A stretch of 64,000 nt of DNA from Anaerolineae bacterium (GTDB taxonomy: Bacteria; Chloroflexota; Anaerolineae; B4-G1; SLSP01), in contig DAOTVC010000039.1 of assembly GCA_034437215.1 (NCBI GenBank), forward strand, positions 35,188 to 99,187. The letters run 5' to 3'. Shown here in pieces: positions 2,259 through 9,144 of the stretch. The notes below the pieces were generated by a model that saw only the letters and a list, made by a program, of their open reading frames with translations, was not told where the DNA came from and ran no database searches. Positions within the stretch are counted from its first letter, which is position 1. Each line of letters opens with the position of its first letter. A program made the translations under genes and the position numbers.

Positions 2259-3749
2259 ATGCGCGAAGAGAGCTTGCAGGCAGAGCAAGCCCGCCTCCTG
2301 GGCGCGCTCCGCAGACACGATGCCGTCGTGGGCCTGGGATGGGGCCTGGTAGCGGCGTTGGCCCTCGAGACGCTGCTGGTCCTCGCCGGTCGGTTGGTGC
2401 CCCTCTGGTACCGCAGCGCTCTCCTCCGGCTCCTCCCGCTCCTTCTCGGCAGCGGGCTCCTTCTCGGTGCCCTTGTCGGGGCTTATGGCAGCCGGCCCCT
2501 CAGCCGCCGCCTTCGTCGTCTGGAGCGAAATCTCGGGCTCGCCGAGCGCCTGATTACCGCTTGGGAACTGGAGCAAGGACGGATCACCGCCCCCCCTTCC
2601 ATGGTCGAAGAACAGCGCCAGGAGACCCTGGAAACTCTGCGAGGGCTGGACGCCGGGCGCACCTTTCCTCTACGACCCGCGCCGGCTGCCCTCCGCACCG
2701 TCCTGGGGCTCGTCCTGCTGCTCGGCGTAGCGCTGGGACTCCCTAACCCTCAGGAGGAGCGCCTCCTGGAACGGCAGGCGCTTCAGGAGGCCCACGAGGA
2801 AACGATCACCGAGATAGAGTCCTTGATCGCGAGTGTGGCACAAGATTCGTTTCTCGACCCCGAAACGCGCGAGGCAGCGCTGGAGGCCCTGGAAGAGGCC
2901 CTCAGCACCCTGGAGGATCCCCAGACTTCGCCCGACGAACAGATGCGGGCCCTGGACGAGGCTGAGGAGACGCTGGCGGACCTCGAAAACGCCGCAGCGG
3001 AGGCCCGCGTCCAGCAGCTCGCGGAAGCTGCCCCCCTCTCCACGGAGGAGGCAGTCCGACAGATGAGCGAGCTCCTGCAGAGGAGAGACCCTCAAGCGGC
3101 GGCGGCCTGGTTGCGGGAGCTGGTCGAGGAGCGCGGCGATCCGCTCACACCGGAGGAGATCCTGGCCCTGGCGGATGCCTTTACCGAGATGGCGCAGGCA
3201 CTTCAAGAGACAGATCCGGCACTCGCCGACCAGTTTCAGGAGATAGCGGAAGAGATCTACTCCGGTGACGCGCAGGAAGCGCGCGCAGCCATCCTGGAGG
3301 CCTCTGAAACGCTGGGAGAGGTAGCGGAGGGTAACGCGTCCAACCGTAGCCTGGAAAGCGCGCAGGCGCGCTTACAGCGCGTCGAGGAATCCCTGGGGGC
3401 TTCCGCCGGTATGCTATCAGAGGGGGAAGTCCCCAGGGGAGCAGACGCCTCCGGCAGCGGGGGCACAGCAGGCGGGGAGGATGCGGGCAGCAGTGCGCCC
3501 TATGGCCCCTCCGAGAGCGCGCGCCTCGAGGGGGAGAGCGGGCAGATCACCTTACCCCGTGAGAGAACAGCCGGGGAAGGGGAGCCGGGCGTAGGCAGCG
3601 CAGGCAGCGCCCGGGTGGACTACACGGAGGCCTACGGCGAGTATGCGGCGGCTGCAGAGGCCGAACTCTCCAGGCGCTCCCTCCCCCCGGCGATGCGGGG
3701 CTACATCCGTGCCTACTTCAGCAGCCTCGAAGAGCAGGGCTCGCAATAA
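2259..3749 (+). CDS. Hypothetical membrane-anchored protein with about three N-terminal TM helices and a long acidic Glu/Ala/Leu-rich predicted coiled-coil C-terminal domain
   Basis: 496-aa ORF starting 4 nt after the permease stop, so likely co-transcribed. Hydrophobic N-terminus, then repeated EEALxxLE-type acidic segments. Confidence 0.5.
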   Translation: MREESLQAEQARLLGALRRHDAVVGLGWGLVAALALETLLVLAGRLVPLWYRSALLRLLPLLLGSGLLLGALVGAYGSRPLSRRLRRLERNLGLAERLITAWELEQGRITAPPSMVEEQRQETLETLRGLDAGRTFPLRPAPAALRTVLGLVLLLGVALGLPNPQEERLLERQALQEAHEETITEIESLIASVAQDSFLDPETREAALEALEEALSTLEDPQTSPDEQMRALDEAEETLADLENAAAEARVQQLAEAAPLSTEEAVRQMSELLQRRDPQAAAAWLRELVEERGDPLTPEEILALADAFTEMAQALQETDPALADQFQEIAEEIYSGDAQEARAAILEASETLGEVAEGNASNRSLESAQARLQRVEESLGASAGMLSEGEVPRGADASGSGGTAGGEDAGSSAPYGPSESARLEGESGQITLPRERTAGEGEPGVGSAGSARVDYTEAYGEYAAAAEAELSRRSLPPAMRGYIRAYFSSLEEQGSQ

Positions 3750-3793
3750 GATTACGCACCACATAGCCTTGGCCAAGGAGATTATTGCAGTTC

Positions 3794-3822
3794 TTGACAA
3801 TCGTCCCGCCCTATGCTAACAT
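3794..3822 (+). promoter_or_regulatory. Sigma70-like promoter candidate TTGACA-N17-TAACAT
   Basis: Read from the sequence: TTGACA at 3794-3799, 17-nt spacer, TAACAT at 3817-3822. Confidence 0.4.
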
Positions 3823-3944
3823 GAAACTTGTTTGGAGATCCCAGTGCAAAACTTAACCGGAGCGACCCAGACCAACAACAATCAGCAGCCGCATCCTCGG
3901 GGAGGATCCGGTTAGCCGAACGCGCGAGCAACACGCGAATTGAA

Positions 3945-3978
3945 CCAGCCTACCGGACCGGAGGCTGGTTTTTCTTTT
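3945..3978 (+). terminator. Intrinsic terminator: CCAGCCT/AGGCTGG stem followed by TTTTTCTTTT
   Basis: Hairpin plus U-tract about 150 nt downstream of the candidate promoter and about 85 nt upstream of glnA. Confidence 0.5.
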
Positions 3979-4061
3979 GGGCTAGGGGTCTGCTCCAGAA
4001 GGAGGTGCAGCCAGGTGAGAAGCAAGGCCCGCGAGGGGTCACGTTGTAAACGGTCAAAATC

Positions 4062-5450
4062 TTGACAGCCAAGCAGACTCATATACCATTCAACCAAGGT
4101 CAGGAGGCAAGCAAAATGTCCATCGACGTAGTGTCCCGTGCCCAAGAAGATCAAGTACACTTTATCAGCTTACAGTTCATCGACATTCTGGGGAACATCA
4201 AGAGCGTGACCATCCCGGTCCAGCAGCTGGAGAACGCCCTTCAAGAGGGAGTCTGGTTTGACGGCTCCTCCATTCAGGGCTTCGCGCGCATCTACGAGAG
4301 CGACCGCGTCCTCGTGCCTGACCCCGGCACCTACCGGGTACTCCCCTGGAGCGCCCCGGAGCGGCGCCGGGCGCGCATCCTCTGTGACGTACACGGCCCG
4401 GACGGGGACCCCGCCGCCAATGACCCGCGTACCGTCCTCAAGCGCGCCGTGGAGCGCGCGGCGCAGCGGGGATACGTCTACAACACCGGGCCGGAGATCG
4501 AGTTCTTTATCTTCGAGAGAGCGGCTCACTCCCCTCTCAGTCCCGTCCCCCACGACGTCGTGGGTTACTTCGATTTCTCGCCGCGGGACAAGGCCCAACA
4601 GGTACGCAGCGAGATCGTCCTGGCACTGCAGGCTCTGGGTATCGAGGTCGAGATGAGCCACCACGAGGTAGCGACGGGCCAACACGAGATCGACTTCCGC
4701 TACGCCGACGCTCTCACCAGCGCCGACAACGCCGTCACCTTCAAGTCCGCCGTAAGGGCCGTCGCCGCCAGCCACGATCTCTACGCCAGTTTCATGCCGA
4801 AGCCTATCTTCGGGATCAACGGCTCGGGCATGCACACCCACCAGAGCTTCGCGGGCCGCGATAACGGACGCAATCTCTTCTACGATGCTCACGACACCCA
4901 CCACCTCTCCTCCCTGGCGCGCTCCTTCGTGGCGGGACAGTTAGCCCACGCCCGGGCCCTCTCCGCCATCGTCGCTCCCACCGTCAACAGCTACAAGCGG
5001 CTCACGCCGGGCTACGAGGCCCCCGTCTACATCTCCTGGGCCCACCGCAACCGCTCCGCCCTCATCCGCGTGCCCTCGGCACGTCCCGGACATGAGGCGG
5101 CGATGCGCGTCGAGCTCCGCTGCCCGGATCCCAGCGCTAACCCCTATCTCGCCTTCACCGCGATGTTGGCGGCCGGGCTGGACGGTATCGAGAAGGAGCT
5201 GAAACCACCGGCGATGGTCAACGAGGACATCTACCATCTGGAGCCGGCCGACCTGGAGGCGCGCGGGATCCAGACGCTGCCCGGCACGCTGGGGGAGGCC
5301 CTGGAGGCCCTGGAGAGAGACGAGGTGCTTCTCGAGGCCCTGGGTGCGCCCATCGTGGAGGCCTTTATGCGGGCTCGCCGGGCCGAGTGGGAGGAGTATC
5401 GCATCCAGGTCACGCCGTGGGAGCTGGAACGCTATTTAGAAACGGCCTGA
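4062..5450 (+). CDS. glnA: Glutamine synthetase type I
   Basis: 462 aa. Beta-grasp motif FDGSSI and ATP-binding region KPIFGINGSGMHTHQS; length typical of GSI. Confidence 0.9.
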   Translation: MTAKQTHIPFNQGQEASKMSIDVVSRAQEDQVHFISLQFIDILGNIKSVTIPVQQLENALQEGVWFDGSSIQGFARIYESDRVLVPDPGTYRVLPWSAPERRRARILCDVHGPDGDPAANDPRTVLKRAVERAAQRGYVYNTGPEIEFFIFERAAHSPLSPVPHDVVGYFDFSPRDKAQQVRSEIVLALQALGIEVEMSHHEVATGQHEIDFRYADALTSADNAVTFKSAVRAVAASHDLYASFMPKPIFGINGSGMHTHQSFAGRDNGRNLFYDAHDTHHLSSLARSFVAGQLAHARALSAIVAPTVNSYKRLTPGYEAPVYISWAHRNRSALIRVPSARPGHEAAMRVELRCPDPSANPYLAFTAMLAAGLDGIEKELKPPAMVNEDIYHLEPADLEARGIQTLPGTLGEALEALERDEVLLEALGAPIVEAFMRARRAEWEEYRIQVTPWELERYLETA

Positions 5451-5470
5451 AGCAGTTACTAGGGGGATGC

Positions 5471-5638
5471 CTGCCGTAGGCGGGGCAATCCCTGCCGTAG
5501 GCGGGGCAATCCCTGCCGTAGGCGGGGCAATCCCTGCCGTAGGCGGGGCAATCCCTGCCGGAGGCGGGGCAATCCCTGCCGTAGGCGGGGCAATCCCTGC
5601 CGGAGGCGGGGCAATCCCTGCCGGAGGCGGGGCAAGCA
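5471..5638. repeat. Tandem direct repeat of a 21-bp unit CTGCCGTAGGCGGGGCAATCC, about 8 copies, some with the T-to-G variant GGAGG. Flanked by the 12-bp inverted repeat GGGATGCCTGCC (5464-5475) ... GGCAGGCATCCC (5641-5652)
   Basis: Counted directly in the sequence. Intergenic between glnA and the NUDIX gene. ORFs 5410..5658(-) and 5467..5787(+) are artefacts of the in-frame 21-bp periodicity. Confidence 0.9.
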
Positions 5639-5668
5639 GGCGGCAGGCATCCCAACAAGGAGGAGCGT

Positions 5669-6124
5669 ATGGAGCCAGAACAGATTCCCGTCCTCTATGC
5701 CGTCGCCGGGGGGGTCGTCTACGACATACAAAAGCGCCAGGTGGTGGTGCTCATCCGCCCCTCCCGGGACGAGATCCGGCTGCCTAAAGGCCATATCCTG
5801 CCCGAGGAGAACCCCGAGCAGGCAGCCCTGAGGGAGATCACCGAGGAGACGGGCTATTCCGATCTGGAGATCGCCCTCACACTCGGAGAGCAGTTGGTCG
5901 TTTTTCCCTTCGGCAAGCACACTATTCGGCGCACGGAGTACTACTACCTGGTCTACCTCCGTTCGGAGCAGCAGGTGGAGCGCCCGCCTGCCGACGAGGA
6001 GGAGTTCTTCCCCATCTGGATCTCTCTGAACGAAGCCCTGGAGCACCTCACCTTTGAGGCCGAGCGCGAGTGGATCCGGCGGGCGCAGGCCTACCTCATA
6101 GAGCGCCGCGAAGATGGCGCGTGA
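5669..6124 (+). CDS. NUDIX hydrolase
   Basis: Nudix box GHILPEENPEQAALREITEETGY (G-x5-E-x7-REUxEExGU). RBS AAGGAGGA upstream. Confidence 0.8.
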   Translation: MEPEQIPVLYAVAGGVVYDIQKRQVVVLIRPSRDEIRLPKGHILPEENPEQAALREITEETGYSDLEIALTLGEQLVVFPFGKHTIRRTEYYYLVYLRSEQQVERPPADEEEFFPIWISLNEALEHLTFEAEREWIRRAQAYLIERREDGA

Positions 6125-6818
6125 ACGACGCGAAGCACTGAAGGCCAAGATCCTGGAGGTCCACCGGCGTCTCGGTGCCGCCTACGGTGAGCCGGAGCGC
6201 GAGGCGGAGAAGGGGGCCGTGGCCCAGCTGGTGAACACCATTCTCAGCCAGAACACCAACGACCGCAACCGCGATCTGGCCTACGATCGCCTGCGTCTAC
6301 GCTTCCCCAGCTGGGAAGCCGTGCGCGACGCGCCCCAGGAGAAGGTGATTGAAGCCATCCGCCCTGCAGGCCTGGCGCCCAGCAAGGGGCCCCGCATCCA
6401 GGAAGCCCTGCGAGAGATCACCCGCACGCAGGGCGAGATCACGCTCGACTTTCTGCGGGACCTGGGCCTTGAGGAGGCCCGGGAGTGGCTCCTCGGCATC
6501 AAGGGGGTCGGCCCCAAAACAGCCGCCATCGTGCTCCTCTTCGCCCTCGCACGGCCCGCCTTTCCGGTGGACACCCACGTGCACCGCGTGAGCCGGCGGC
6601 TGGGACTGATCCCGCAGGACACATCACGGGAGAAAGCCCACACCCTTCTGGAAGGGCTGGTTCCGGAGGCGCTCTACTATCCCTTTCACATCGAGTTGAT
6701 CCGCCACGGGCGGGAAGTCTGCACAGCCCGCAACCCGGAGCACGCCGCGTGTGGTCTACAGGATCTCTGCGACTACTATCAGGAGTTGAAGGTCGATGAA
6801 AGAGCGAACGAGAGTTAA
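6114..6818 (+). CDS. nth: Endonuclease III-like DNA glycosylase of the HhH-GPD family
   Basis: HhH-GPD signature LLGIKGVGPKTAAIVLLFAL..FPVDTHVHRV. C-terminal Cys cluster is incomplete (three Cys). Overlaps the NUDIX gene by 11 bp, so likely an operon. Confidence 0.7.
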   Translation: MARERREALKAKILEVHRRLGAAYGEPEREAEKGAVAQLVNTILSQNTNDRNRDLAYDRLRLRFPSWEAVRDAPQEKVIEAIRPAGLAPSKGPRIQEALREITRTQGEITLDFLRDLGLEEAREWLLGIKGVGPKTAAIVLLFALARPAFPVDTHVHRVSRRLGLIPQDTSREKAHTLLEGLVPEALYYPFHIELIRHGREVCTARNPEHAACGLQDLCDYYQELKVDERANES

Positions 6819-7353
6819 ATTCCCCCTGTTGATCTATCAGACCCTGAGCAAGCGCTGGTTCGTCTCTTCTGTGCTGCTCATCCCTCTGGGCCTGCTGCTC
6901 TGGTGGAGCCAGCGACAGAGTGGCCCCTACGCCTTCGCCATCCTCTTCGTCCCGCTGGCGGGCGTCCTCCTCACTATCTACACGCTGCTGGCGCGCAATG
7001 CCGCCGTCGTCTGCAGCCCCAAGCACTTCACCGTCCGTACGCCGCTCATGCCGGTGGTCTTCTCCTACCGGCGGGTGGAGAATGTACGGCCCCTCGAATT
7101 CGCCGCGGTCTTCCCTCCCCTGGAGGAAAAGGGAGTGCGGCGACGCTTCTACCAGAATCTCTGGGCCAAGACCGCCGTCGTCGTCGATCTCAAGGGCTAT
7201 CCCGTCGCCCTGTGGTGGCTGAAACTCTGGTTCAGCCCCTACCTGCTGCACCCCCAAGAGCGGGCCCTCGTCCTGCTCGTCGAGGAGTGGATGGCCCTCG
7301 TACGCCAGATCGAGATCCGGCGCGCGGCCCTCCAGGAGGGGCGACATTACTGA
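6796..7353 (+). CDS. Hypothetical membrane protein, possibly bacterial PH-domain-like
   Basis: 185-aa ORF with two N-terminal TM helices. Start overlaps the nth 3' end. No confident family. Confidence 0.35.
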   Translation: MKERTRVKFPLLIYQTLSKRWFVSSVLLIPLGLLLWWSQRQSGPYAFAILFVPLAGVLLTIYTLLARNAAVVCSPKHFTVRTPLMPVVFSYRRVENVRPLEFAAVFPPLEEKGVRRRFYQNLWAKTAVVVDLKGYPVALWWLKLWFSPYLLHPQERALVLLVEEWMALVRQIEIRRAALQEGRHY

Positions 7354-7379
7354 AAGCGCCGAGAGGGTCTTTGTTTTTG

Positions 7380-7710
7380 GTTGCTGAAGGGGGCACAAAC
7401 CCAAATTAAACGCATTGGATTTTGGATTCTGTAGGGCATTATCCCAAAATGATAGCGCAAACCCATAACTTATCCACTTTTCCACAGCTTTATCCACAGG
7501 CCAAACCGTAATTGTAGGGGTCACGAGGTCCCAAAGTGGCACTTACAGGGAAAAGGTAATTTGTTATTCACAGTTATTCGTGCAACCTTAAAACTTAGGT
7601 CCTTTTAACACAAAAGGGGCTCCTGGAATTGCACCCCCGGGGCTTTTTTGGTAAAATAGGGGCGTGCCAAGGGATGAAACGCCCTGCGGAACTCCACCAA
7701 GACACTTCCA
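7380..7710. other. Candidate oriC region upstream of dnaA: DnaA boxes TTATCCACT (7470-7478) and TTATCCACA (7490-7498), a degenerate box at 7439-7447, and an AT-rich stretch at 7561-7620
   Basis: Consensus DnaA boxes (TTATCCACA) seen directly. Sits immediately 5' of dnaA in a 360-bp non-coding, lower-GC region. Confidence 0.5.
7629..7657 (+). promoter_or_regulatory. Candidate dnaA promoter TTGCAC-N17-TAAAAT
   Basis: Read from the sequence, about 145 nt upstream of the likely dnaA ATG. Confidence 0.35.
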
Positions 7711-7800
7711 CAGGTGGAGGACGACACACCAATCTTTGCACGAAGTAGCATTATGGAATCGGAGGGTCCTTTTGCGCCCCTCCGCAGCAAGGGGAATTAT

Positions 7801-9144
7801 ATGAATGAGGCAAATTCGCACAAATTATGGCGCGCCACCTTGGGAGAGCTGGAGTTGCAGATGACGCGCGCCACCTTTGACACCTGGCTACGAGACACCC
7901 GTTGTCTGGGTTTGGAAAACGGAGAGACCCTGGTCATCGGTGTCAAGAACGGGTACGCGGTCGAGTGGCTGGAGAACCGCCTTCAACCCATCGTACAGCG
8001 CACCCTGCAGCACATTGCCGGAAAAAGTCTAGAAACACGCTTTGTGGTGTGGGAGGGTAATCGCACCCCGCCCCCGCCACCGCTTCTTCAGGGGGAGAGC
8101 ATGGATGTCGTCACCACTCCGGTTCCCGATCCAGGTCTGAATGAAGAGTATACCTTCCAGGACTACGTCGTGGGGCCGGGCAACCGGTTGGCGCAGGCGG
8201 CCTCCCAGGCCGTCGCCGAGGCACCGGCCCGCGCTTACAACCCCCTCTTCCTCTACGGCGGTGTGGGGTTGGGTAAGACCCATCTCCTCCACGCCATCGG
8301 TCAGATCTCCTACAGGCAGGGTCTGCAAGTCCTCTACATCTCCTCCGAGCAGTTTACCAACGACCTGGTCGAGGCCATCCGCACCCACACCACCGATGCC
8401 TTTCGGGATAAGTACCGCAACGCTGAAGTCCTCCTCGTCGATGACATTCAATTTATCGCCGGCAAAGAGAGCACCCAGGAGGAGTTCTTCCACACCTTCA
8501 ACGCCCTCCGCGATACCGGACACCAGATCGTTCTCAGCAGTGACCGCCCGCCCAAGGCTATGATCACCCTTGAGGAGCGCCTGCGGTCGCGCTTCGAGTG
8601 GGGCCTGATCGTCGACATCCAACCCCCGAATTTCGAGACCCGGTTGGCCATCCTGCGCAAGAAGGCCCATCGGCGCGGCGTGAAGATCTCGGACAGTGTG
8701 CTGGAGTTCATCGCCAGCAACGTCGAGAGCAACATCCGCGAGCTCGAGGGCGCTCTCAACCAGCTCCTGGCGCTCTCACGCCTCACGGGCTTGCCGCTAA
8801 ACCTGGAGACTGCTCAGCAGGCCCTCACCGACCTGCTCCCCAGCCGCCCCACCCTGACGGCCGAGGAGATCATCGAGATGGTCTCTACCTACTACAACCT
8901 CACCGTGGACGAGCTGCGGAGCCCTCGTCGCAGCCGCAGGATCGCCTTTCCCCGCCAGATTGCCATGTACCTGATCCGGGAGGAGACCGATTCCTCCCTG
9001 CCCCAAATCGGAGCGCAGCTGGGCGGCAGAGATCATACGACCATTCTCTACGGCTACGAGCGCATCCGCACCACCCTGGAAGAGGACCCCCAACTGCGAC
9101 GCGAGATCCTGACGCTCAAGTCACGCCTCTACGAACGCAACTAA
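7801..9144 (+). CDS. dnaA: Chromosomal replication initiator protein DnaA
   Basis: AAA+ Walker A GVGLGKTHLL and C-terminal DnaA-box binding domain (RRIAFPRQIAMYL). The ORF track starts at 7714, but the conserved N-terminus begins at MNEANSHKLW (ATG 7801). Confidence 0.9.
   Translation: MNEANSHKLWRATLGELELQMTRATFDTWLRDTRCLGLENGETLVIGVKNGYAVEWLENRLQPIVQRTLQHIAGKSLETRFVVWEGNRTPPPPPLLQGESMDVVTTPVPDPGLNEEYTFQDYVVGPGNRLAQAASQAVAEAPARAYNPLFLYGGVGLGKTHLLHAIGQISYRQGLQVLYISSEQFTNDLVEAIRTHTTDAFRDKYRNAEVLLVDDIQFIAGKESTQEEFFHTFNALRDTGHQIVLSSDRPPKAMITLEERLRSRFEWGLIVDIQPPNFETRLAILRKKAHRRGVKISDSVLEFIASNVESNIRELEGALNQLLALSRLTGLPLNLETAQQALTDLLPSRPTLTAEEIIEMVSTYYNLTVDELRSPRRSRRIAFPRQIAMYLIREETDSSLPQIGAQLGGRDHTTILYGYERIRTTLEEDPQLRREILTLKSRLYERN

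Follow-up and report, generated by a model that had tools for sequence, protein, structure and literature searches.

A 21-nt tandem array between glnA and a NUDIX hydrolase gene of an Anaerolineae bacterium: a probable young minisatellite inside a conserved intercistronic stem-loop

In the colibactin island, the activity of the clbR promoter depends on the repeat number of an 8-bp tandem repeat, the clbR-clbB VNTR (PMC10924459). The 7-nt repeat of the hmw genes in Haemophilus influenzae forms a long hairpin in the 5'-UTR that is cut by RNase III, and expression is inverse to repeat number (PMC12721329). Other intergenic repeats are dispersed over the genome. REP and BIME elements, known from enterobacteria and pseudomonads, are GC-rich and imperfectly palindromic, measure 21-65 nt, are often clustered and affect the stability of the upstream mRNA, and MIRUs are units of 40-100 bp found at about 40-50 loci, with small ORFs that overlap the neighbouring genes at their ends (PMC3184786). 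BrickBuilt, a 23-nt tandem minisatellite of Porphyromonas gingivalis, is always intergenic and has a leader and a tail ending in small inverted repeats (PMC4596501).

In this study, a 21-nt tandem array was analyzed in a 64-kb stretch of DNA, hereafter the window, and compared with the same site in ten related lineages (labeled L021 and so on). The locus contains the following features.

4116-5450, + strand: glnA, type I glutamine synthetase, 444 aa (TIGR00653, 544 bits against a cut-off of 429)
5451-5668, + strand: glnA-NUDIX spacer, 218 nt, equal to an ancestral spacer of about 71 nt plus 7 x 21 nt
5464-5476, + strand: left arm of the ancestral hairpin, GGGATGCCTGCCG, 13 nt, 100% complementary to the right arm, with homologues in L021 and L023
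5470-5637, + strand: tandem array, 8 x 21 nt, with units starting at 5470, 5491, 5512, 5533, 5554, 5575, 5596 and 5617
5641-5653, + strand: right arm of the ancestral hairpin, CGGCAGGCATCCC, kept in L021 and L023 with compensatory changes
5657-5665, + strand: Shine-Dalgarno sequence of the NUDIX gene, AAGGAGGAG, read from the sequence and beginning 4 nt past the hairpin
5669-6124, + strand: NUDIX hydrolase, 151 aa (PF00293; no NCBIfam model above cut-off)
6114-6818, + strand: endonuclease-III-family HhH-GPD DNA glycosylase (PF00730), overlapping the NUDIX gene by 11 nt
6796-7353, + strand: conserved 185-aa protein without family match, overlapping the glycosylase gene by 23 nt and last in the apparent operon

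The glnA gene starts at ATG 4116; the mechanical ORF begins at TTG 4062, and the exact 444-aa product is annotated in a conspecific MAG. The original prediction had named the downstream genes a NUDIX-nth operon. The PF00293 and PF00730 matches agree with these identities at the family level, but the 'nth' gene scores under the curated nth cut-off; the best NCBIfam matches of the glycosylase, NF053634 and TIGR01083, both lie under their cut-offs. Three ORFs span the repeat (5467-5787 on the + strand, 5410-5658 and 5459-6148 on the - strand). They had been explained as artefacts of the 21-nt period, and rightly so: none has a family match in NCBIfam, and none is possible in array-less relatives. 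The + strand ORF starts 17 nt past the glnA stop, out of frame with both neighbours, and runs into the NUDIX gene.

Tandem Repeats Finder reported a period of 21, 7.9 copies, 97% matches, 0% indels and a score of 311 at 5470-5635, the runner-up array within the window scoring 75. The repeat unit, CCTGCCGKAGGCGGGGCAATC, runs head-to-tail for 7.9 copies from 5470 to 5637. A search with the unit CCTGCCGTAGGCGGGGCAATC gave eight in-register tandem matches with 0, 0, 0, 0, 1, 0, 1 and 2 mismatches, where shuffles expect 0.00. The eight-fold repeat of the original prediction is thus real, and so is the T/G polymorphism that it described between units: the variable base reads T T T T G T G G in order, and the G in units 5, 7 and 8 turns GTAGG into GGAGG. 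Unit 8 ends in CAAGC, so the array consists of seven clean copies and one slightly divergent terminal copy. All eight units are direct, and the sole inverted piece is the single right arm. The start-to-start spacing equals the unit length of 21, which leaves no spacers; the array has the head-to-tail, spacer-less units of 10-100 nt that a VNTR or minisatellite shows, and a CRISPR array, with its unique spacers between repeats, was rejected.

The array lies between the glnA stop (5448-5450) and the ribosome-binding site of the NUDIX gene, whose ATG is at 5669, as originally placed. The bracketing inverted repeat, previously given as 12 bp, is real and perfect. Its length is 13 nt, however, and its left arm does not stand outside the array, because unit 1 begins with the last 7 nt of this arm. 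The pair GGGATGCCTGCCG/CGGCAGGCATCCC has no second occurrence within the window, and the sequence 3' of the stem is AACAAGGAGG.

Compared with the described systems, the array is similar to the clbR-clbB VNTR in its perfect head-to-tail short units, its short intergenic spacer, its formation by slippage, its variation between close strains and its ability, in principle, to alter the expression of a neighbour. Unlike that VNTR, it has a self-complementary unit of 21 nt, lies between co-oriented genes instead of in a divergent promoter region, and contains no promoter element. One half of a conserved hairpin can be identified as its source, and its variation is known from the unit sequence. The hmw repeat likewise yields a long stem-loop in an untranslated region (a putative one here) directly upstream of a gene, and would be the best functional analogue if the array tuned expression. 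In hmw, however, the repeats form the left arm and pair with a separate G-rich right arm, whereas the units here, of 21 instead of 7 nt, are predicted to pair either internally or with one another, with an older 13-bp stem closing them all.

The elements of the other known families are related to the array more loosely. Like REP and BIME elements, the hairpin and the array are GC-rich palindromes between genes that are probably co-transcribed, and both may act on mRNA. REPs occur in hundreds per genome and alternate in orientation in BIMEs, whereas the array is a direct tandem at one locus and was generated locally; this class was rejected because no dispersed copies were found in the 64-kb window or in public scans and no alternating orientation is seen. 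MIRUs, which are strain-variable and GC-rich with internal inverted repeats, also place tandem units in the intercistronic spacer of an operon-like gene pair. They were rejected in view of the 21-nt unit, the one locus seen and the out-of-frame array ORF. BrickBuilt shares spacer-less tandem units of about 21-23 nt, short inverted-repeat ends and an intergenic position, but has 19 copies in each genome and is considered mobile, whereas the inverted repeat here is the ancestral hairpin, found at the same site in array-less relatives.

The origin of the array is readable from these relatives. In eight of the ten lineages, glnA lies directly upstream of the NUDIX, glycosylase and 185-aa genes (and dnaA); the gene order is kept in all of these, and dnaA follows wherever the contig extends that far. 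The 185-aa gene is syntenic in most relatives and uncalled in L031, and glnA is absent upstream in L030 and L031. None of the ten lineages carries a tandem repeat at this site, as judged from their spacers and, for L034 and L040, from Tandem Repeats Finder. The three closest lineages, with NUDIX proteins 68-87% identical, have spacers of 60-73 nt with one GC-rich hairpin each. In the two closest (L021 and L023, 86-87%), the hairpin arms are homologous to the inverted repeat of the window, and the window spacer, collapsed to one unit, measures 71 nt and aligns with theirs column by column. Since 218 nt equals 71 nt plus 7 x 21 nt and the relatives have a single hairpin, the array arose in place. 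An equivalent GAGGAGGAG/GGAGG element is found at the corresponding position of the relatives' spacers.

Two compensatory pair changes were observed among the three close lineages: A-U to C-G, and C-G to U.G to U-A. Pair counts were limited to these lineages and more distant hairpins were judged from individual folds, because MAFFT sets the L028 stem one column out of register. In L028, L029, L032 and L040 the stems are entirely different, and yet each spacer folds well below its shuffles where tested (z -3.0 to -6.8). The hairpin of the short-spacer lineages has 12-19 bp and ends 14-27 nt upstream of the NUDIX start codon; the strongest hairpin of the long-spacer lineages L034 and L040 lies near the glnA stop, far from the NUDIX start. 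The hairpin is prone to indels in relatives too: a 13-nt apical indel separates L025 and L027 from L023, L024 and L026, all of which encode an identical NUDIX protein. The conservation of the structure across changing sequences indicates that the single hairpin is under selection. With the same position, compensatory changes and G.U pairs that favour the + strand, presumably the transcribed one, it has the properties of a conserved intercistronic RNA stem-loop, a functional class here and not a curated family.

The folding potential is specific to RNA of one strand. The + strand RNA folds to -148.3 kcal/mol (z -6.4 against shuffles), whereas the - strand gives a z of -1.4. This asymmetry is due to a U.G pair in each unit; the L021 stem has a U.G pair too. 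As + strand RNA, the unit can form the hairpin CCCUGCC-GKA-GGCGGGG with 7 bp, one of them G.U, at -11.9 kcal/mol against -8.7 for the - strand. In the RNA minimum-free-energy fold, the 13-bp inverted repeat closes the entire array, which bears out the earlier idea that the whole could form one stem-loop, and the Shine-Dalgarno sequence stays outside the stem. The predicted stability increases linearly with copy number, by about -15 kcal/mol per added unit. DNA folds of the two strands are unremarkable (z -1.9 and +0.1), and neither a cruciform nor slipped DNA was retained as a special feature because the DNA folds no better than shuffles. A G-quadruplex built from the GGGG that recurs every 21 nt would have 17-nt loops, far above the usual limit, and would compete with the stable hairpins.

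Consensus scans of 5000-6200 found neither a promoter-like site nor an intrinsic terminator, so the label of promoter region given to the array by the original prediction lacks a basis. In both the window and L021, the region upstream of the hairpin also lacks promoter-like sites, with the final 350-500 nt of glnA included. The hairpins of the window and its relatives are not followed by a U-tract and are therefore not canonical intrinsic terminators. Rfam searches were negative both for 3500-8000, at E<=1, and for the whole window, at gathering score.

The proposal to look for the unit elsewhere was followed on the window and on public contigs, and it turned up the array and no related copies. 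Within the 64-kb window, no further copy exists with <=3 mismatches, which led to the rejection of a dispersed repeat family. Exact-pattern scans of genome, metagenome and viral contigs returned either nothing or isolated single matches whose flanks were unrelated and whose variable base was A or C; the genome collection evidently lacks the source species, whose genome was covered as the window. Viral contigs gave no match to the unit, and neither did 72,556 plasmids (blastn).

The array varies within the species. In a MAG that is 99.92-99.96% identical and in a Logan assembly, the contigs end inside the array; those of the MAG reach at least 3.6 units on its left and 2.7 on its right. Exact-protein look-ups with NUDIX and glnA also returned contigs that all terminate within the array. 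Where the window has G in the last unit or units, the MAG (in the last two units) and the Logan assembly have T, and these T/G changes account for two of the five differences between near-identical assemblies across 6.5 kb. The independent contig breaks and the T-for-G differences indicate that the array is real and variable within the species, the variation between strains being one of unit sequence, that is, of the T/G composition of the last units.

We consider it probable, at roughly 60%, that the array is a young, species-specific minisatellite that formed in place when replication slippage or unequal exchange expanded a conserved intercistronic stem-loop from within. Slippage, already named by the original prediction, is accepted as its natural source. 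The ancestral state, a glnA-NUDIX spacer of about 70 nt with one GC-rich hairpin, is still present in the closest relatives, and a 21-nt segment comprising the inner 7 nt of the left arm and the loop was amplified to eight copies in this species. The right arm stayed single, and the old 13-bp stem thus still encloses the whole array. Given the absence of promoter and terminator consensus and the co-orientation with both genes, the spacer is most likely transcribed with glnA, as the + strand. Its RNA may fold as a rod of high stability (-142 kcal/mol) or as eight 7-bp hairpins in a row, and would act as the single hairpin does, as an intercistronic RNA structure. A putative role is to protect the 3' end of the glnA message and/or to reduce or process the read-through that reaches the NUDIX-glycosylase-185aa operon. 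Each added unit would contribute about -15 kcal/mol to this putative barrier. The expansion itself was probably close to neutral.

Alternatively, the array could be a tuning or contingency locus, in which slippage changes of 21-nt units alter the RNA leader in length or stability, heritably and reversibly set NUDIX-glycosylase expression, and the expansion was selected. Because no promoter consensus lies between the array and the ATG, every transcript entering NUDIX from upstream must cross the array. The predicted stability is linear in copy number, the array differs between 99.9%-identical genomes, and the hmw repeat (PMC12721329) and the clbR-clbB VNTR (PMC10924459) are precedents. However, the differences shown between strains are T/G changes between units, and the array occurs in one of 11 lineages with no recurrent expansion seen at the site. 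Furthermore, the downstream genes are housekeeping-type enzymes, whereas typical contingency loci concern surface or restriction genes, and 21-nt units mutate much more slowly than 1-8-nt repeats. Such tuning is regarded as unlikely. A simple-sequence contingency locus, with a 1-8-nt unit in a promoter spacer or a reading frame, was rejected, as the unit has 21 nt and lies, with no promoter consensus, outside the supported frames. It is highly unlikely that the array is a heritable, length-variable RNA valve on read-through from glnA, a nitrogen-regulated gene with strong expression, into an operon for nucleotide sanitising and base-excision repair, with NUDIX and an EndoIII-family glycosylase, beside the replication origin, the unit number tuning repair capacity and hence the mutation rate within a population. 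Such a valve would amount to an hmw-like 5'-UTR/RNase III mechanism built from a 21-nt hairpin unit and acting on housekeeping repair genes of a free-living Chloroflexota bacterium.

The position of the hairpin bears on a further reading, in which hairpin and array form the 5' leader of a separate NUDIX-operon transcript, as a 5' stabiliser or a modulator of Shine-Dalgarno access, and not a 3' element of glnA. The hairpin is 14-27 nt before the NUDIX ATG in all short-spacer lineages, and L030, which lacks glnA, has one just before the NUDIX ribosome-binding site, 14 nt from the ATG, so the structure could belong to a NUDIX leader. In L031, also without glnA, a structured leader comes after a TTGACA-16-TATACT promoter, a TATAAT lies immediately 5' of the L032 hairpin, and the G variants place GGAGG, the Shine-Dalgarno core, in the unit loop. 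Against this, promoter-like sites are missing upstream of the hairpin in the window and in L021, the strongest hairpin follows soon after the glnA stop in every glnA-containing relative (far from NUDIX in L034 and L040), and the stem excludes the Shine-Dalgarno sequence; a leader role is regarded as unlikely. The iteron of the original prediction, or an operator-like array, would serve cooperative protein binding, perhaps tied to the nearby dnaA/oriC. The 21-bp period is typical of iterons, which are direct repeats of 17-22 bp beside an initiator gene or origin and conserved with it, and, as two helical turns, it makes all units face the same way on the helix; there is a short dyad in every unit, and a DnaA-box cluster (7470-7572) lies 1.8 kb away. 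The idea was not sustained and is very improbable: the array is absent in all ten relatives, including those with dnaA seen downstream of the operon, the unit contains no DnaA box or similar sequence, no plasmid or viral contig matches it, no species-specific initiator or regulator gene is adjacent, and the structural signal is confined to + strand RNA and absent in DNA. The architecture resembles BrickBuilt (PMC4596501) and could denote a small mobile element of the MITE type that holds a minisatellite between 13-nt terminal inverted repeats, yet these repeats are the hairpin arms at the orthologous site of the array-less L021 and L023, which means that there is no empty site. As no target-site duplication or flanking direct repeat surrounds the element, and no second copy of the ends or the unit exists within 64 kb nor of the unit in public scans, this is extremely improbable. 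Tandem repeats are classically misassembled, and open frames cross this one on both strands, so that the array might be supposed to be misassembled, or to encode a heptad repeat (PAVGGAI) of a real protein. Both are scarcely credible, because, on either side of the array, the contigs of two independent datasets run out in the same units, and because the ORFs match no family, cross the well-supported NUDIX gene in another frame and would be impossible in relatives with 60-73-nt spacers.

Expanded in place, the array is an ordinary bacterial intergenic minisatellite of an uncultured Anaerolineales genome, and its origin can be traced clearly. The ancestral hairpin, the amplified arm and loop, and the retained closing stem are all readable from the relatives, and the case illustrates the growth of a tandem array out of a structured intercistronic RNA element. 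If the copy number varies and changes NUDIX/glycosylase read-through, the repeat-length RNA regulation known from hmw would extend to longer units and to environmental bacteria. In practice, short-read assemblies of the species break at the array, which accounts for a gap between contigs some 2 kb upstream of dnaA; the array could also be of use as a strain marker. In the hairpins of the relatives, the loop motif GGCGAGG(G) is common to L021, L023 and L028 despite the different stem of L028, which hints at a possible sequence-specific recognition outside what the stem-loop model explains.

The array between glnA and the NUDIX gene is a real feature: an intergenic minisatellite that can be shown to derive from one half of a conserved RNA hairpin. 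Window positions 5200-5900 and the dnaA region downstream are arranged as follows.

5448-5450: glnA stop codon
5451-5668: glnA-NUDIX spacer, 218 nt
5464-5476: left arm of the inverted repeat, GGGATGCCTGCCG
5470-5637: eight units of CCTGCCGTAGGCGGGGCAATC
5641-5653: right arm of the inverted repeat, CGGCAGGCATCCC
5657-5665: AAGGAGGAG, ribosome-binding site of the NUDIX gene
5669: ATG of the NUDIX gene (151-aa product)
7470-7572: DnaA-box cluster ahead of dnaA
7714-9144: dnaA, downstream of the 185-aa gene

In Tandem Repeats Finder one array of the 64-kb window stood out with a score of 311 (5470-5635; period 21; 7.9 copies; 97% matches, without indels); the runner-up scored 75. The unit matched eight times in perfect register, with no match expected in shuffled sequence; units 5, 7 and 8 carry G instead of T, and unit 8 terminates in CAAGC. 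The 21-bp x 8 repeat with T/G variants, originally described as lying between the glnA stop and the NUDIX ribosome-binding site, was thus recovered there, and it falls within the definition of a minisatellite. The inverted repeat is also present, perfect and without another occurrence in the window; however, it spans 13 nt rather than the 12 originally described, and its left arm overlaps the start of unit 1 by 7 nt instead of bracketing the array exactly. The unit order T T T T G T G G points to duplication of a two-unit (42-nt) block in at least one step, or to conversion between units. With the T-to-G change (units 5554-5574, 5596-5616 and 5617-5637), GTAGG becomes GGAGG, which places a Shine-Dalgarno core at the loop of the hairpin that each unit can form.

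NUDIX homologues were traced to their contigs, and the comparison covered ten lineages (59-87% identical). They keep the gene order NUDIX-glycosylase-185aa(-dnaA), although the 185-aa gene was not called in contig L031, and glnA lies directly upstream in 8 of the 10. A tandem repeat was found in none of the ten orthologous spacers, which were read directly, with Tandem Repeats Finder for the long spacers of L034 and L040. In the three closest lineages, represented by contigs L021, L023 and L028, the spacer of 60-73 nt is made up of one GC-rich hairpin and, after it, the ribosome-binding site. The hairpin arms are as follows.

L021: GGCTGTCTGCCG...CGGCAGGCAGCC
L023: GGATGTCTGCCGCCGGC...GCCGGCGGCAGACATCC
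L028: GGAAGCCGATCCCGAC...GTCGGGATCGGCTTCC

By sequence comparison, the inverted repeat of the window is plainly homologous to the arms of L021 and L023. Cut to one unit, the window spacer is 71 nt long and aligns base for base with both (218 = 71 + 7 x 21). Two stem pairs change in a compensatory manner among the window, L021 and L023 (A-U to C-G; C-G to U.G to U-A). The stems of L028, L029, L032 and L040 are unrelated in sequence, yet each spacer forms a strong hairpin, and the relatives' hairpins fold better than shuffles (z -3.0 to -6.8 where tested). The compensatory pairs and the persistence of hairpins despite unrelated stems indicate that the single hairpin is a structure conserved by selection, and that the array is a state derived in one species. 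The loop motif GGCGAGG(G) is common to L021 (~1641-1647), L023 (~1919-1926) and L028 (~3954-3961), although the L028 stem is completely different; the window form, GGCGGGG, occurs at 5479-5487 and in every unit. Its retention across different stems hints at sequence-specific recognition of the loop.

The array very probably originated in place at this hairpin. Amplification took in the loop and the innermost 7 nt of the left arm and left the right arm in single copy, so that the intercistronic hairpin expanded into a 168-nt array with its closing stem retained. The self-complementarity of the unit is derived as well: the corresponding segments of L021 and L023, GTCTGCC and GGCGAGG, would pair at only 4 of 7 positions. 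The expansion is probably the nearly neutral outcome of slippage in hairpin-forming DNA, and would reinforce the RNA structure. In a second species the hairpin is also an indel hot spot, as contigs that share one NUDIX protein sequence (P0003) are distinguished by a 13-nt indel in its apical part. Two forms, an 18-bp stem with a 5-nt loop versus a 12-bp stem with a CCGG loop, separate L025 (370-429) and L027 from L023 (1889-1961), L024 and L026; both are present in one JGI metagenome, 3300001815.

An exact-protein look-up found two near-identical datasets, the MAG GCA_046541445.1 and the Logan assembly SRR19844289 (99.92-99.97% identity to the window). The left MAG contig stops inside the array after the left flank and 3.6 units, the right one begins within the array and covers 2.7 units up to the right arm, and the Logan contig likewise starts within it; therefore, short-read assemblers fail at the array, an expected outcome where a tandem repeat exceeds the k-mer length. 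This explains the assembly gap ~2 kb upstream of dnaA. MAG contig L007 (5427-5502) has exactly 76 nt of pure array (21 + 55) at its end, and L005 (1-55) opens with 55 nt of it. A de Bruijn assembler using k = 55 is expected to leave this pattern on passing through the repeat cycle once, which implies a MAG array of at least about 4 units. The array composition differs between these near-identical genomes: the last unit(s) read GTAGG in the MAG and Logan data versus GGAGG in the window. The variant T is not borrowed from another unit, because the unique CAAGCAGG junction is ~12 nt away from it. Over 6.5 kb there are five differences, and two of them fall inside a 57-nt stretch of array.

The + strand RNA around the spacer (241 nt) is predicted to fold at -148.3 kcal/mol (z -6.4; 0 of 200 shuffles as good) into a rod of 7-bp helices closed by the 13-bp ancestral stem, in line with the original prediction that the enclosing repeats could close the whole array as one stem-loop. 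The - strand RNA reached only z -1.4, and single-stranded DNA folds of both strands were no better than shuffles (z -1.9 and +0.1); the folding potential is thus strong and specific to + strand RNA. The unit hairpin CCCUGCC-GKA-GGCGGGG is worth -11.9 kcal/mol on the + strand versus -8.7 on the other, where its U.G pair becomes a C/A mismatch. Eight local hairpins in a string total -92.8 kcal/mol versus -142.3 for the rod, and each extra unit adds ~-15 kcal/mol; which form is adopted in vivo would depend on folding kinetics.

The hairpin is most likely transcribed from glnA, since the spacer is co-oriented with both genes and lacks a promoter consensus, and since in relatives the NUDIX start codon follows the hairpin by only ~15 nt. 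The hairpin would then act as an intercistronic RNA structure: a barrier to 3' exonucleases and/or a site of RNase III cleavage or of partial, non-canonical termination. In each case, abundant glnA mRNA would be uncoupled from the downstream repair-type operon. We propose this role tentatively, at slightly under even odds; together with the in-place origin, it is given a probability of about 0.6. The main alternative within this class places the hairpin in the leader of the NUDIX operon. Contigs L030 (2291-2500) and L031 (2177-2500) have no glnA between a 506/510-aa protein and NUDIX (spacer 210-324 nt), so glnA presence at the locus is variable in the clade; L030 nevertheless has a hairpin 14 nt before the NUDIX start, and L031 has a near-consensus TTGACA-16-TATACT promoter (2314-2341) followed by a structured leader. 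No sigma-70-like promoter or hairpin-plus-U-tract terminator was found in window 5000-6200, at odds with the promoter region originally proposed, nor at the glnA-NUDIX junction of L021, which has the single hairpin. Copy number might also tune downstream expression, a less likely reading for which the repeat hairpin in the 5'-UTR of Haemophilus hmw, processed by RNase III, is a good precedent (PMC12721329). The reconstruction of the array's origin is clean, and no surprising biology is demonstrated.

Other readings fared less well. Open frames spanning the array have no family match and cannot be conserved, so a coding repeat was rejected and the frames are artefactual, as predicted. A MITE was rejected because its 'terminal inverted repeats' already exist as hairpin arms at the orthologous site; moreover, target duplication, multiplicity and an empty site are lacking, and a second copy was not found in the window or in the public scans. 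The suggested protein-binding iteron lost ground: the array is neither associated with an initiator nor conserved alongside one, the unit contains no DnaA box, and no similarity was found among 72,556 plasmids. Rfam assigned the array to no RNA family, and a viral-contig scan did not match the unit. Copies of the unit elsewhere were not borne out either, as public genome and metagenome scans gave only isolated single matches that look like chance (A or C at the variable base, unrelated flanks). The closest kinds are intergenic VNTRs/minisatellites, the hmw repeat hairpin, REP/BIME, MIRU and the BrickBuilt MITE minisatellite (PMC4596501). REP/BIME elements are reported to affect mRNA stability from a similar position in enterobacteria (PMC3184786), a role resembling that proposed for the hairpin, but the array lacks their dispersal and alternating orientation. 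It differs from MIRU in unit size and overlapping ORFs, from contingency SSRs in unit size and promoter or ORF location, from intrinsic terminators in lacking a U-tract, and from CRISPR in lacking spacers.

The NCBI name attached to the identical NUDIX protein gives the host as an uncultured Anaerolineales bacterium. The glnA product passes the curated cut-off of the type I glutamine synthetase model; its annotated ATG is at 4116, and a mechanical ORF begins at TTG 4062. Upstream, ~365 nt (3750-4115) hold only short mechanical ORFs without a supported gene and no Rfam match, glutamine-riboswitch families included. ARAGORN called a 91-nt tRNA-Gly(ccc) at 4347-4437 (-), antisense within glnA, almost certainly a false positive because Rfam sees no tRNA there. 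The next gene has a NUDIX domain, but its substrate is not assignable because no specific NCBIfam model passes its cut-off. It is followed by an HhH-GPD glycosylase of the endonuclease III family, below the nth cut-off, and a conserved 185-aa protein without a family match; overlaps of 11 and 23 nt suggest that the three form a coupled operon. No GC-skew switch is visible at 4-kb resolution, but the DnaA-box cluster is probably part of oriC: four DnaA-box-like 9-mers (TTATCCACT, TTTTCCACA, TTATCCACA, TTATTCACA) lie in a stretch of ~100 nt inside the 360-nt dnaA upstream spacer, and the window holds 11 such 9-mers versus 4.7 expected.
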